DNA of 64,000 nucleotides. It comes from Thermoanaerobaculia bacterium. GTDB taxonomy: Bacteria; Acidobacteriota; Thermoanaerobaculia; Gp7-AA8. Position 1 is the stretch's first letter. Each line of letters starts with the position of its first letter. The notes beneath the pieces are model-generated. The model had not been told where the DNA came from. It ran no database searches and worked only from the letters and a program-made list of their open reading frames with translations. Made by a program: the position numbers and the translations under genes. The stretch lies in the NCBI GenBank assembly GCA_034663965.1, contig JAXDIO010000154.1, positions 6,872 through 70,871 on the forward strand, in the 5' to 3' direction. Shown piece by piece: positions 35,771-43,069 of this stretch.

Positions 35771-36400
35771 ATGCCTGAGCTGTCCATCTTCGTGTCACAC
35801 ACGCGTGAGCAGACTGCGACGGTGCGGCGTCTGGCGGCGGAGCTGACGTCGCGTGGATTTTCGATCGCGATCAATCGCCTCAGCGTACCGCCCGGCAAGC
35901 GCGTCCAGCCGGCGCTGGAACGTTCCATGGCCGAGGCAGCGCGATGCATCGTCTGCTTTTCGGCGAAGCCGGGAGGGCCAGCCGAGTACGACGCCGCCGA
36001 TCTCGTCCTTGCGAATGAGCGGATGCGGGCAAAGCCGGAGGATACGTCATGGCTGATTCCGGTGACATTGACCGCGTGCGAGTTGCCCGCAATCGATTTT
36101 GGCAATGGATTGCTGAAGGGCCTCCCCGCGATCGAGCTTCACGCCGACTGGGACGGTGAAATCGAAAAGCTGATTGCGGCGCTGCCGCGGCCGGCCACCG
36201 GCCTGCCTGCGGAAACGGTTCCCTCAACGCCGTTGCCGGGCGGGCATTCAGAGATGTCGACGCAGATTCGGACCGCACAGGGAAAGGAGTTCACATTCAC
36301 GAACGTGCACGGCGCGGCTGGGACGAACGCTACGTCGAGACACGAGATTGACAGCCTCACCTCCGATGGGCCAGTCAATTTCACGAACGTGAAGCGCTGA
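35771..36400 (+). CDS. TIR-domain protein
   Basis: The start was trimmed to MPELSIFVSH, which has an adjacent GGAGGGA RBS. TIR betaA/alphaA blocks are present (LSIFVSHTREQTATVRRLAAELTSRGFSIAIN...PGKRVQPALERSMAEAARCIVCFS...WLIPVTL). Confidence 0.75.
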   Translation: MPELSIFVSHTREQTATVRRLAAELTSRGFSIAINRLSVPPGKRVQPALERSMAEAARCIVCFSAKPGGPAEYDAADLVLANERMRAKPEDTSWLIPVTLTACELPAIDFGNGLLKGLPAIELHADWDGEIEKLIAALPRPATGLPAETVPSTPLPGGHSEMSTQIRTAQGKEFTFTNVHGAAGTNATSRHEIDSLTSDGPVNFTNVKR

Positions 36401-36410
36401 AACGCACACC

Positions 36411-40560: not shown

Positions 40561-40567
40561 GGTAGCG

Positions 40568-43069
40568 ATGAGCGAAGCAGCCGAGAATGTCGTGGTGCCC
40601 CAACCGAAGTCCGTAGATAGTGAGGCAGGCCCGGACGCGGCGTTATCGAAACAGGTGCCGCCGGGTATCGCGGGGCAGCAGCCGCCAATCGAGATCCTGC
40701 GCCCAGAAGAGCCACCGCAACCTGACAGGGAAACGAAGCAGCCGGCAGCCAGCGGCTGGGTTCCAGCGGTGGACCGTAACCCGGAGCCGGTGGAGCGCCC
40801 TGCCGCGCTCAAGGTCGTGATCGGTTCAAACGCTTCCGGGCAGAACATGTTCGCGAATAACCTGTACCAGTTTGCCGCGCCGGCGTCAGAGGTGATGTTT
40901 TCGGCCGATCTCGCATCGCGGATAGGGGACGCTGCCGAACGGGAACTGCTGGCCGTGGTCACGATCGATTCCGACTTTGCTGCCTGTGTCCGGGCGGCAC
41001 TGGAGAAGCAACGCGTCGTCCTGATCAGCGGCGCGGCGCACAGTGGAAAGGGGACGGTGGCGAAGTACCTGGCGGCCGAGCTGGCATCGCGACAGGGGCT
41101 CACACAGGAGACGTACGTCGTCGGTCCGCTGGAGAGCCGCGTCCGTGTCCTGCCGCGCGCGCTCGCTGCCGACGGGAACTTCGGCAATCGCGTCACGATC
41201 TTCACAGACGCGTTCGAGAAAGAACACAAGGATCTCCTCAATTTCTTTTCTTCCGATTCCGCAGCTTGGGAGGAACTCCGGACGTCGCTGGCGGCGAATG
41301 ACGCCTACTTCATCTTCACTACGTCACACACGCGGATGAACGCGTTCCGGGACCGGTTACGCGTGAATGCATTCGAAGTAGCTCCCTGGCCTGAGCTGAT
41401 CGCGACCTCTATCGAACGAAAGCTGGCGTGGCTGGAGTCGCAGCCTGCCGGACGGAAGGAGAAGGTGCATGAGGTCCGCGAAAAACGCGAGGTCATTGCC
41501 GCGAAGCTACAAACGATTCCCCGTATCGCGTCGATGATCGACGACTACGTCGGCGGCGGCGAACATTTCGACGTAGTGCTCGAGCGTCATGCATCGGCTT
41601 CCCCTTCGTTGCTGGACGATCTGCAGACAGACGTCGACGCCTGGTGTTTCGCGCTTACGGTGGCGATCGCCGAGACGGCGGAGAAGCCGCTGCCATGGTC
41701 TGCATTCGAGCGTCTGCGTCGCTCGTTGACCAGTCACATCAAAGACGATCGAGAGCTGATTCCGCCGCTTGGCATCAGACGCCCCGGACTGGTGGCCGCG
41801 CGCGGACAGCGTCCCTCCACCGCGTGGCTGAGCGACAAGCCGCTCTTTACCCGCTGCCGAGCTGTCTTCCGTGAAGATGCGTCGGGCGCGCACGTGGTGG
41901 CATTCACCGATCCGGACTGTGGTCGGGGTATCCGGAAGTCGCTGCTCGACCACCACCGCCGCCTGCTTTTGATGCTCGCGCCGTTTCTCCGCCGTATGGC
42001 GGAGGGAGCCGACGTTCCCGATTCGCTCCATTCGATCGCCGCTTACACGCTCGGCAGCATCGGCTCGATTGATCCGCCCGAAATCAGTTTGCCGCTCCTG
42101 TCGGTCGAGAGCGGATGGGTTTCGGAGGGCCAACCACGCTCGCTGATTGGCCAGCTCGTTCGCGGAGCGCTCGGCGCGAGCGACGAACGGTACCGCGGCG
42201 CAGTTCTCCGAGCGCTATCGCGCATCGCGAAGGTTGCTCCAGAGTCGTTGGACGACGTCGCGGCAGCGCGTCTGAGGACGGCGATCGACGCCTATTCGCA
42301 GCTCGGGAAGTGCCCTGACGCCAAACCGATGGTGCAGTTGCGCGAGATCGCAGCGTGTCACTGCGTGCCGGCTCTCACGCGCGCGTATGAGCACTTCGTC
42401 GAGGTCGATAAGGCGAACCGCGAGCAGGTGGCCGTCCGATCGCAGAAAGCATTGGACGAGGCTCGCGACCGCGGCCGCATGCACCTCGGCCTGGGTCTTG
42501 CCGATCTCGCGATCTGCGACGTCGTCGCGCGGCCCCTCCAACAAGCCATCGCCCGACTCTCCCTCGACGACGTTCATGCGGTTACCGCCATGCGCGATTG
42601 GCTCTCTGTCGGAGGTGCGGAGATGCGCCTCCTTGTACCGTACCTGTTCCTTATCGACGGCGGCGTTGCCGACTGGCTGGAATACTTAGCCACGGGGGCT
42701 GGCGGCGATGGATCGAAAACGACCAATGATGTCGTCTTCGAGGCGGCTGCGAGCCGCCAATTCCAGCACGAACTCGCCGGATTCCTTTGCGATGTCTACG
42801 GCGCGATTCGAAACAACCCGTCGATCTCTGTCGACATCCAGGAGGTGCTCGAACGCCGTCTCGCGGAGTGTCTGATCCGCTGGGTGACGACGGCCGCGCC
42901 GGCGCCGCAGTTCCGCCACGGGCTGGAGGAGCTCTTTGGCACCCTGGCAGCGGCGCGTGGCGGCTTCATGCGCCGTTGGTTGTTCGCGCTGATCAGAAGG
43001 CCAGCATTCACGCAGTCGGAGGCCATGAAGGAGTTCGCATCGGCGGCCCGTCGTCAAATGGACGAGTAG
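40568..43069 (+). CDS. large P-loop NTPase (Walker A GAAHSGKGT), unknown family
   Basis: The start was trimmed to MSEAAENV. The Walker A motif is VVLISGAAHSGKGTVAKYL. A putative Walker B is RVTIFTD. About 830 aa, with a long C-terminal helical region. Confidence 0.65.
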   Translation: MSEAAENVVVPQPKSVDSEAGPDAALSKQVPPGIAGQQPPIEILRPEEPPQPDRETKQPAASGWVPAVDRNPEPVERPAALKVVIGSNASGQNMFANNLYQFAAPASEVMFSADLASRIGDAAERELLAVVTIDSDFAACVRAALEKQRVVLISGAAHSGKGTVAKYLAAELASRQGLTQETYVVGPLESRVRVLPRALAADGNFGNRVTIFTDAFEKEHKDLLNFFSSDSAAWEELRTSLAANDAYFIFTTSHTRMNAFRDRLRVNAFEVAPWPELIATSIERKLAWLESQPAGRKEKVHEVREKREVIAAKLQTIPRIASMIDDYVGGGEHFDVVLERHASASPSLLDDLQTDVDAWCFALTVAIAETAEKPLPWSAFERLRRSLTSHIKDDRELIPPLGIRRPGLVAARGQRPSTAWLSDKPLFTRCRAVFREDASGAHVVAFTDPDCGRGIRKSLLDHHRRLLLMLAPFLRRMAEGADVPDSLHSIAAYTLGSIGSIDPPEISLPLLSVESGWVSEGQPRSLIGQLVRGALGASDERYRGAVLRALSRIAKVAPESLDDVAAARLRTAIDAYSQLGKCPDAKPMVQLREIAACHCVPALTRAYEHFVEVDKANREQVAVRSQKALDEARDRGRMHLGLGLADLAICDVVARPLQQAIARLSLDDVHAVTAMRDWLSVGGAEMRLLVPYLFLIDGGVADWLEYLATGAGGDGSKTTNDVVFEAAASRQFQHELAGFLCDVYGAIRNNPSISVDIQEVLERRLAECLIRWVTTAAPAPQFRHGLEELFGTLAAARGGFMRRWLFALIRRPAFTQSEAMKEFASAARRQMDE

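Follow-up and report, generated by a model that had tools for sequence, protein, structure and literature searches.

A 64,000-nt stretch of a Thermoanaerobaculia (Acidobacteriota) metagenome-assembled genome (MAG), called the window below, was analysed, and attention was given to six plus-strand genes at 35771-43069 (g1 to g6 in order; Table 1). Their products are a TIR-domain protein, a ZorA/MotA/ExbB-like channel subunit, a ZorB/MotB-like subunit, a protein predicted to be all-helical, a protein with a predicted SPFH fold and a STAND-like P-loop NTPase. A preliminary description of this DNA had taken them for a Zorya-like but undescribed operon. Our results indicate that the Zorya anti-phage systems probably have an undescribed relative in this operon, as judged from the sequences of its products and of their homologues. 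Homologous loci are numbered with the prefix L and proteins with the prefix P.

All six open reading frames (ORFs) were found where the preliminary description had placed them, tightly packed with spacings of -4, -4, 7, 10 and 15 nt. Overlaps of the ATGA type were confirmed at 37649 (g2/g3) and 38326 (g3/g4); g1 and g2 are separated by 10 nt and g4 and g5 by 15 nt. A third 4-nt overlap, claimed at 40560, was not borne out: the g5 stop codon occupies 40558-40560, and the g6 start at 40557 that this overlap implied is out of frame and runs into 24 stop codons. Two candidate starts were found for g6, ATG 40568 and GTG 40544. The former leaves a 7-nt gap after g5 and carries a GAGG Shine-Dalgarno sequence, homologous loci show a gap of 7-9 nt, and ATG 40568 is most likely the start. 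The ATG of g1 carries an upstream GGAGGG. A simple scan for intrinsic-terminator-like sites found none at the plus-strand intergenic junctions and two plus-strand consensus matches within g1 and g6. The GC content of the operon is the same as that of its surroundings. Two products are 100% identical to NCBI proteins (QOI58_1658 for g2 and QOI58_1661 for g5). Because each of the six ORFs has same-order homologues at 30-90% identity in about 30 other loci, they are real genes rather than chance frames.

The channel subunit g2 matched Pfam MotA_ExbB (PF01618) with 24.6 bits, over the gathering score of 22.9, and its best PADLOC matches were all ZorA (ZorA2 and ZorA1, E 1e-6 to 3e-5; ZorA2 E 1.2e-6), in agreement with the MotA/ExbB-family channel proposed earlier. 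When the g2 family profile was compared with the PDB, ZorA (E 0.28), PomA and MotA were all insignificant, so the superfamily membership of g2 rests on Pfam and PADLOC. A hydropathy scan placed transmembrane (TM) segments at about 18-36 (TM1), 155-173 (TM2) and 207-225 (TM3), followed by a cytoplasmic tail of about 155 aa (residues 229-385) and, at 392-410, a hydrophobic helix. Across 26 aligned homologues, LGxxGTFxGL in TM2 and KTAF in TM3 were invariant, and the C-terminal hydrophobic helix was present in 25 of the 26, the exception being P0098, which has a longer, different C-terminus.

The partner subunit g3 carries an OmpA domain (Pfam, E 5e-12) and matched PADLOC ZorB1 over nearly its full length (E 3.8e-27, profile positions 9-226 of 243), as expected of the MotB/OmpA peptidoglycan-binding partner that had been suggested. 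The OmpA-type peptidoglycan-binding motifs NxxLSxxRA and NRRIE were visible. In the PDB, g3 matched MotS, PomB and EcZorB (8qyd, residues 16-213), with MotS and PomB stronger than EcZorB. The TM residue Asp27 (WPAMIDMLTS; WPxxxDMLTS in the family) was kept in 32 of 33 loci. On the curated side, g2 reached only 16 bits against NCBIfam ZorA cut-offs of 100-700, and g3 was likewise far under the ZorB cut-offs. These matches indicate that g2 and g3 form a MotA/ExbB-MotB-type pair with a kept ion-coupling TM Asp and peptidoglycan-binding domain. They place the pair in an apparent new clade of the MotA/MotB superfamily that is nearest to ZorAB and outside its curated membership. In the ZorB-like protein of one Pyrinomonadaceae locus (L032, 11229-11888) the TM Asp is absent (WASLMFLLIV), suggesting a possibly inactive channel.

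For g4, the 313-aa unknown of the preliminary description, Pfam, NCBIfam, PADLOC and PHROGs gave no match, and its predicted structure, with a predicted local distance difference test (pLDDT) score of 91, was entirely alpha-helical with no informative fold match. In the loci examined g4 occurs solely alongside the stator pair, which fits an adaptor role. The same four collections gave no significant match for g5, Band_7 of Pfam included, and no hydrophobic segment, TM segment or signal peptide was found in it. Its predicted structure showed an SPFH domain at about 80-184, preceded by a very conserved N-terminal part of about 76 aa and followed by a single helix of about 100 residues and a helical C-terminal domain. 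The structural model supports the SPFH/coiled-coil guess made for this 425-aa protein and indicates an SPFH fold without a membrane anchor. Three g5 relatives (the L047 protein, P0128 and P0150) passed the Band_7 threshold (24.4-25.2 vs 23.6 bits).

The last gene, g6, gave a marginal pass for nSTAND3 (PF20720; 27.8 bits vs a gathering score of 27.2); the match was unmarked in the L001 homologue. Its Walker A (SGAAHSGKGT, K161) and Walker B (VTIFTD, D214) motifs keep the GKxT and hhhFxD patterns and are intact in the window and the acidobacterial loci. These features indicate that g6 is a STAND-like P-loop NTPase, and the Walker-A NTPase of about 830 aa foreseen in the preliminary description is confirmed at 833 aa. 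The N-terminal residues (about 140) and the C-terminal residues (about 570) contained no Pfam repeat, sensor or effector domain, and PADLOC gave only weak matches, none of them Zorya-related. A sequence comparison of g6 with the PDB yielded only a P-loop-level VirB11 match (E 0.21).

The front gene g1 matched Pfam TIR_2 over the full profile (E 1.1e-13) with a complete domain, as the earlier TIR assignment had it. Against the PDB, the best match of the TIR-family profile was SPARTA TIR-APAZ (E 2e-6, whole domain), and the Glu of the family motif DE[LV] aligned with the SPARTA catalytic residue E77, indicating a TIR domain of SPARTA-like kind. In SPARTA the E77A mutant is unable to hydrolyse NAD+, and activity depends on oligomerisation. 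The front position is occupied by different proteins in different loci: TIR in about 12 loci (the Thermoanaerobaculia clade of the window), a CHAT protease in about 21, with the HFxGHG His and LN[AG]C Cys intact in 20 of 20, and a Ser/Thr kinase in one (L031), where a gap of about 110 nt precedes the ZorA-like gene. Exchange of the effector while its place in the operon stays constant is typical of conflict systems. By eye, the first-gene proteins of all loci, whether TIR, CHAT or kinase, carry a C-terminal tail of 50-70 aa in which two short beta-like motifs stand out (FTFTNV...VNFTNVKR at about 140-209 of the window g1, FTITNVKNR in the L025 CHAT protein, FTLTGEEEG in the L031 kinase). When a hidden Markov model (HMM) was built from the TIR tails, it recovered every one of them and also the L006 TIR-like protein (E 0.0014).

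The recurrence of the operon was measured in a 185,579-species collection, one genome per species, scanned with two conserved peptide patterns, so that counts are lower bounds. At least 25 true loci were found, all in MAGs of Thermoanaerobaculia, Blastocatellia/Pyrinomonadaceae and Longimicrobium/Longimicrobiaceae (Gemmatimonadota). A word-indexed search of 5.8 billion proteins returned 80 relatives of g2, 18 of g5 and 11 of g4, and a full HMMER scan with a g5 profile returned 342 clusters at 50% identity. Both the single window proteins and profiles were run against the six-frame ORFs of all fetched loci. The order ZorA-like, ZorB-like, g4, g5, g6 was seen in about 30 loci of the phyla Acidobacteriota and Gemmatimonadota; nearly every long-enough locus of the ZorA clade has the five genes in order, and in L034 g4 was not detected. 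The flanks are housekeeping genes in L007 and L043, where the cassette stands alone, and transposases, an integrase fragment and AbiEii in L008; in L005 and L009, PP2C, kinase-like and VWA genes lie within the same operon. Co-occurrence is therefore not confined to one lineage, which the preliminary description had named as a way for its proposal to fail, since the cassette stands in two phyla with differing flanks. The ZorA-like proteins of Longimicrobium are 41-46% identical to that of the window, vs 27-36% for a second Thermoanaerobaculia clade, and this independence from taxonomy suggests horizontal transfer between phyla. A metagenome scan with a narrower g5 alignment gave only 7 loci; broad g5 alignments were too divergent for pattern design. 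Viral contigs contained no g5 relative and two distant ZorA-like matches (25% identity) outside the family, and PHROGs gave only OmpA-type matches.

Comparison of the loci showed that parts of the operon also occur separately. In L002 and L006, g5 and g6 follow a TPR/caspase/DUF4384/TIR-like set and have neither the stator pair nor g4 with them; L046 has TIR-g5 without the stator pair, and L049 is a three-gene unit of CHAT, g5 and g6. With or without the stator pair, g6 always follows g5. Moreover, members of the g5 family (L047, 9935-11722; L053, 5831-7924; P0128, P0140, P0150, P0179, P0185, P0187, P0236, P0250 and P0251) are fused to effectors. In the L047 protein and six further representatives a TIR domain is C-terminal to SPFH; the other forms are SPFH-CHAT, SPFH-DUF900 hydrolase and PP2C-SPFH. 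These fusions argue that g5 acts in direct contact with the effector and, together with the g5/g6 units that have no stator, suggest that the core consists of effector, SPFH scaffold and NTPase. The ZorAB-like pair with g4 would then be an added envelope-sensing module. Thus, of the claim that the six genes form a unit, the recurrence stood and the unity did not, as the portable core is effector, SPFH protein and NTPase, with ZorA, ZorB and g4 added on.

Both variants were seen back to back in L006 (1-13569), with TIR-ZorA-ZorB-g4-g5 on one strand and TPR/caspase/DUF4384/TIR-like/g5/g6 on the other. The L047 fusion stands alone within a lantibiotic gene cluster. The L053 fusion lies between CHAT and kinase-like genes; no adjacent g6-sized gene was called there, and no g6 profile search was made at that locus.

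To our knowledge, Zorya is the only immune system that uses a rotary-motor-type membrane complex as its sensor, and all described types end in nucleases. The operon resembles Zorya types I-III in its MotA/ExbB-like subunit with a cytoplasmic C-terminal extension (g2), in its MotB-like subunit with a TM Asp and a peptidoglycan-binding domain (g3), and in the translational coupling of this pair to soluble cytoplasmic proteins that vary between subtypes. The soluble partners that define the Zorya types are ZorC with ZorD, ZorE, or ZorF with ZorG. The operon differs in that PADLOC found no ZorC, D, E, F or G homologue in it, which agrees with the earlier statement that no known Zorya type has this soluble set; g4 and g5 have no PADLOC match at all. 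The soluble set of the operon is made up of the proposed helical adaptor g4, the SPFH scaffold g5, the STAND-like NTPase g6 and a TIR or CHAT protein. Because this set ends in TIR or CHAT, the output would be directed at NAD+ or protein, not at nucleic acid by a nuclease. The stator module is, furthermore, dispensable for the rest of the system. In Zorya, the ZorAB motor with its cytoplasmic tail senses envelope perturbation and recruits soluble effectors (PMC11946911, PMC11890865). Published ZorA tails extend to about residue 729 (PMC11946911), several hundred residues with a free end, as compared with about 155 aa and a conserved TM helix in g2. Two of the four testable features that define Zorya, the tail architecture and the type-defining effectors, were thus absent from the operon.

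The soluble part has likenesses of its own. With the NTP-dependent conflict systems (Kaur, Burroughs, Iyer and Aravind 2020, 2021; PMC7159879, PMC8195603) it shares an nSTAND3-type NTPase, interchangeable TIR, CHAT, caspase and PP2C modules, and an occurrence in soil bacteria with further CHAT, TPR and VWA genes alongside. However, the effector of the operon is separate or SPFH-fused rather than NTPase-fused, and no repeat sensor is recognised on g6. In PMC7159879 and PMC8195603, MotA, MotB, TolQ and ExbB are unmentioned, the one occurrence of SPFH is in a title in the reference list, and OmpA is named solely as an iSTAND effector domain. The arrangement of g5, an SPFH domain followed by a long helix, is that of the ring- and cage-building SPFH assemblies (HflK/C-FtsH, QmcA-YbbJ, stomatin, flotillin), whereas its lack of a membrane anchor, its unique conserved N-terminal domain and the absence of an NfeD or FtsH partner set it apart. 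FliL is an SPFH-fold protein able to partner a stator unit, and forms rings around MotAB stators; unlike FliL, g5 would act on the cytoplasmic side. The Bunzi system reportedly also contains an SPFH protein. SPARTA shares with the operon the TIR type and the aligned family Glu. The operon differs from SPARTA and Thoeris in that Argonaute, APAZ and ThsA partners are all absent from it and the catalytic position of the window TIR protein is taken by Asp. A membrane motor and an SPFH assembly would be the source of activation. For Thoeris, only weak ThsB-type matches (PADLOC E 0.0085; ThcB4 20.8 bits vs a cut-off of 220) and no ThsA-like gene were found. In the literature library searched, which is incomplete, 'Zorya-like', 'ZorAB-like' and 'type IV Zorya' were unmentioned, no top-ranked paper joined SPFH with TIR defence or a stator with STAND/CHAT, and none was found there on a gene combination like that of the operon.

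On balance, we lean towards a chromosomal modular conflict system, most likely an abortive-infection-type anti-phage defence, in which a Zorya-like sensor is placed on an effector/SPFH/NTPase core. In such a system, the ZorA-like and ZorB-like proteins would assemble as a 5:2 ion-driven unit. An envelope disturbance, for example phage genome injection, would cause ZorB-like to anchor to peptidoglycan, and the effect of rotation or a conformational change of the ZorA-like tail could reach a g5 ring or cage via the helical adaptor g4. This g5 assembly might hold the effector by way of the effector's C-terminal tail and the conserved g5 N-terminus, with g6 gating or driving it. Clustered TIR domains would then hydrolyse NAD+ or make a signal, CHAT in the sister systems would cleave protein targets, and the output of either could stop the growth of the infected cell. 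Expression would come from an alternative-sigma-type promoter common to a trypsin-like protease pair and an anti-sigma/CHAT gene (see below). For the earlier picture of a MotAB-like sensor wired to TIR and NTPase effectors, the domains were thus found and curated Zorya membership was not, while the anti-phage role is one that we infer.

Several observations weigh against this defence reading. The TIR proteins of the window (Asp77), L010 and L011 have Asp at the position of the catalytic Glu; because Asp replaces Glu in the window and its two closest relatives, the NADase activity of g1 is uncertain. The TIR-tail HMM retrieved no CHAT tail, which speaks against a docking tail common to both effector types; since the likeness is visual and without statistical support across effector types, the shared tail is a lead only. 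The g2 tail is short and TM-ended, unlike that of ZorA, so that tail-based signalling may differ from ZorA. In the Longimicrobium clade (L007, L015, L017, L018, L020, L022 and L023) the g6 gene is retained and its Walker motifs are eroded (Walker A: GK to GR or RK, first G to A; Walker B: D to N or K), suggesting that NTP hydrolysis is not universally required. Moreover, g4-g6 match no PADLOC or PHROG model, all loci come from uncultured soil MAGs or metagenomes, and no restriction-modification, CRISPR or like classical defence genes were seen beside the cassette. A mobile-element or abortive-infection (Abi) context was found only in L008.

The promoter region and the neighbouring genes bear on a different explanation. 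An A-run with the exact 10-mer CGTCCGTCTA at a fixed distance occurs once per TIR-type locus, just upstream of whichever gene comes first in the operon; in L005 and L009 this first gene is PP2C. In the window, the pattern AAAA-N9-13-CGTCCGTC has 3 sites vs 0.03 expected (Table 1), and a sigma-70 promoter scan of 35000-43400 found nothing. The site at 47160-47182 sits inside the end of a gene for an extracytoplasmic function (ECF)-like sigma factor. This sigma gene (47111-47947; TIGR02937, E 1e-8) has a 4-nt overlap with the 1081-aa anti-sigma/CHAT gene, whose TPR-CHAT part would be extracytoplasmic if its single TM segment is real; the 242-aa neighbour in this convergent block is conserved and has no family match, and the three genes lie within 43122-47947. 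A third site precedes the window protease, which is 50% identical to the product of L001:13674-14621 (E 1e-99); the 73-aa protein encoded next to it is 55% identical to the gene after the protease in L001 (E 6e-24). Orthologues of the two genes lie directly after g6 in L001, L002 and L003, and the window pair lies 17 kb away, which indicates, from gene order, that it was relocated in the window genome. The convergent block adjoins the operon in L001, L002, L003, L011, L013, L016 and L044, and a sigma/CHAT pair is close to it in Longimicrobium loci L017, L020, L023 and L041. Taken together, the motif sites suggest that the operon in the Thermoanaerobaculia clade belongs to a wider regulon with the protease pair and the anti-sigma/CHAT gene.

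An ECF-type regulon fits a stress or developmental programme equally well, which is a further point against defence. The six genes could then be part of an envelope-stress or programmed-cell-death/developmental regulon under the ECF-like sigma and the anti-sigma-TPR-CHAT protein, where the stator reports wall status and TIR, CHAT and protease execute kin control, dormancy or autolysis with no phage involved. A non-sigma-70 motif common to the operon, the anti-sigma/CHAT gene and the protease pair is what such a regulon would show, as is the adjacency of the sigma/anti-sigma/CHAT block to the cassette in both phyla. The caspase, CHAT, PP2C, VWA and TPR-rich surroundings match apoptosis-like systems of multicellular-type bacteria (PMC7159879, PMC8195603). 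However, the cassette occurs without the sigma/CHAT block in L005, L007, L008, L042 and L043, and exchanged effectors, a patchy distribution and similarity that cuts across taxonomy are features seen more typically in defence genes. The two explanations are also compatible, because abortive infection is a form of programmed death. We regard a purely phage-independent regulon, the main rival to defence, as unlikely.

A contractile-injection/type VI secretion system (T6SS)-type toxin cluster lies upstream of the operon (Table 1), in which MORN-repeat and peptidoglycan-binding proteins are also encoded. The operon might serve it as an accessory or immunity module in inter-bacterial competition, given VgrG-like, PAAR-like and PLD-toxin genes 5-14 kb upstream and an RHS-like ORF that carries the operon's promoter motif. 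On the other hand, a PKD protein gene and a FadL gene separate both clusters in the window, and no VgrG/PLD cluster was seen beside the cassette in the loci with annotated flanks, which makes this explanation very improbable.

A housekeeping role of g2 and g3 in energy transduction, whether as TolQR, as ExbBD or as a motility stator whose SPFH partner resembles FliL, with the TIR and NTPase genes as unrelated neighbours, was the other refutation foreseen in the preliminary description. It is effectively excluded, even though the Pfam match of g2 is to the generic MotA/TolQ/ExbB family and MotS and PomB are nearer to g3 than EcZorB is: ExbD and TolR are without the OmpA domain of g3, the top PADLOC profiles are ZorA and ZorB, and neither the window nor the annotated flanks of other loci contained TolA/Pal, TonB or flagellar genes. 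Likewise, g5 cannot sit in the periplasm like FliL because it has no TM segment or signal peptide, the operon genes are translationally coupled, the five genes vary jointly, as one block, across about 30 loci with the stator pair never seen without g4-g6 in those examined, and the family was found in only 25 species representatives (a lower bound) of the collection scanned.

A wider proposal can be put forward tentatively, with less confidence than the defence reading itself. The operon could represent a new membrane-integrity-sensing immune class, in which an ion-driven 5:2 stator-like motor is coupled mechanically, by a dedicated helical adaptor, to a cytoplasmic SPFH ring or cage that stores and activates interchangeable death effectors (TIR, CHAT, kinase, phosphatase) under a STAND-like NTPase. 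The effector-SPFH-NTPase core, with about 340 sequence clusters, would then count as a defence family in its own right that had so far gone unrecognised and that can accept different sensors. If so, the stator-like sensor would be a portable input module and an independent test of 5:2 motor signalling into the cytoplasm, and SPFH cages would be seen to serve immunity as platforms for effectors. Because natural versions exist with and without the stator module, this signalling question is experimentally tractable. Candidate defence biology would also reach two soil phyla, Acidobacteriota and Gemmatimonadota, in which such systems have been poorly sampled.

Table 1. Position of the operon genes, motif sites and neighbouring features in the window.
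Feature	Position	Strand	Product or description	Evidence or context
g1	35771-36400	+	209 aa; TIR-domain effector, ~70-aa C-terminal tail	Pfam TIR_2
g2	36411-37652	+	413 aa; ZorA/MotA/ExbB-like channel subunit	Pfam MotA_ExbB, PADLOC ZorA2
g3	37649-38329	+	226 aa; ZorB/MotB-like subunit	OmpA domain, PADLOC ZorB1
g4	38326-39267	+	313 aa; all-alpha cytoplasmic protein, proposed adaptor	predicted structure
g5	39283-40560	+	425 aa; soluble SPFH-fold protein	predicted structure
g6	40568-43069	+	833 aa; STAND-like (nSTAND3) P-loop NTPase	Pfam, Walker motifs
Promoter-like motif	35715-35740	+	AAAAAA-N10-CGTCCGTCTA	30 nt upstream of g1 ATG
Motif site	47160-47182	-		anti-sigma-TPR-CHAT gene
Motif site	61246-61271	-		Nal1_C protease
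Fourth element site	62225-62234	-	A-run-N-CGTCCGTC(T/C)A, form common to the four sites	ahead of small RHS-repeat-like ORF
Convergent block	43122-49450	-	242 aa; zf-HC2 anti-sigma/TM/TPR/CHAT 1081 aa; ECF-like sigma 278 aa; CHAT 471 aa
Second stator cluster	49458-58401	-	includes the two genes below
ZorB-like	49458-50132	-	224 aa
ZorA-like	50117-52033	-	638 aa	PADLOC ZorA3/ZorA1 E 2e-7, NCBIfam ZorA_3 E 8e-6
Channel protein	58480-59991	-	503 aa	C-terminal Ion_trans_2 (K+ channel pore)
73-aa protein	60053-60274	-	73 aa	GTGA overlap with protease
Nal1_C/trypsin-like serine protease	60271-61209	-	312 aa	Pfam Nal1_C E 2.6e-5
Toxin cluster	21072-31400		contractile-injection/T6SS-type	upstream of operon
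TIG-repeat protein	22331-26818		1495 aa, PLD domain	toxin cluster
VgrG-like spike	26851-28908			toxin cluster
PAAR-like ORF	30459-30890	-		toxin cluster; by sequence only

Further along the minus strand, the window holds a second, unrelated ZorAB-like pair. Its ZorA-like protein has a long coiled-coil tail, and the pair is preceded by three large genes without a family match (586, 1025 and 524 aa, the last with an N-terminal TM segment) and followed by a CHAT gene. These unfamiliar genes were compared with g4-g6 and are not paralogous to them. The K+ channel-type gene lies between this second stator cluster and the protease pair, and the second ZorAB-like arrangement was also found in L044.

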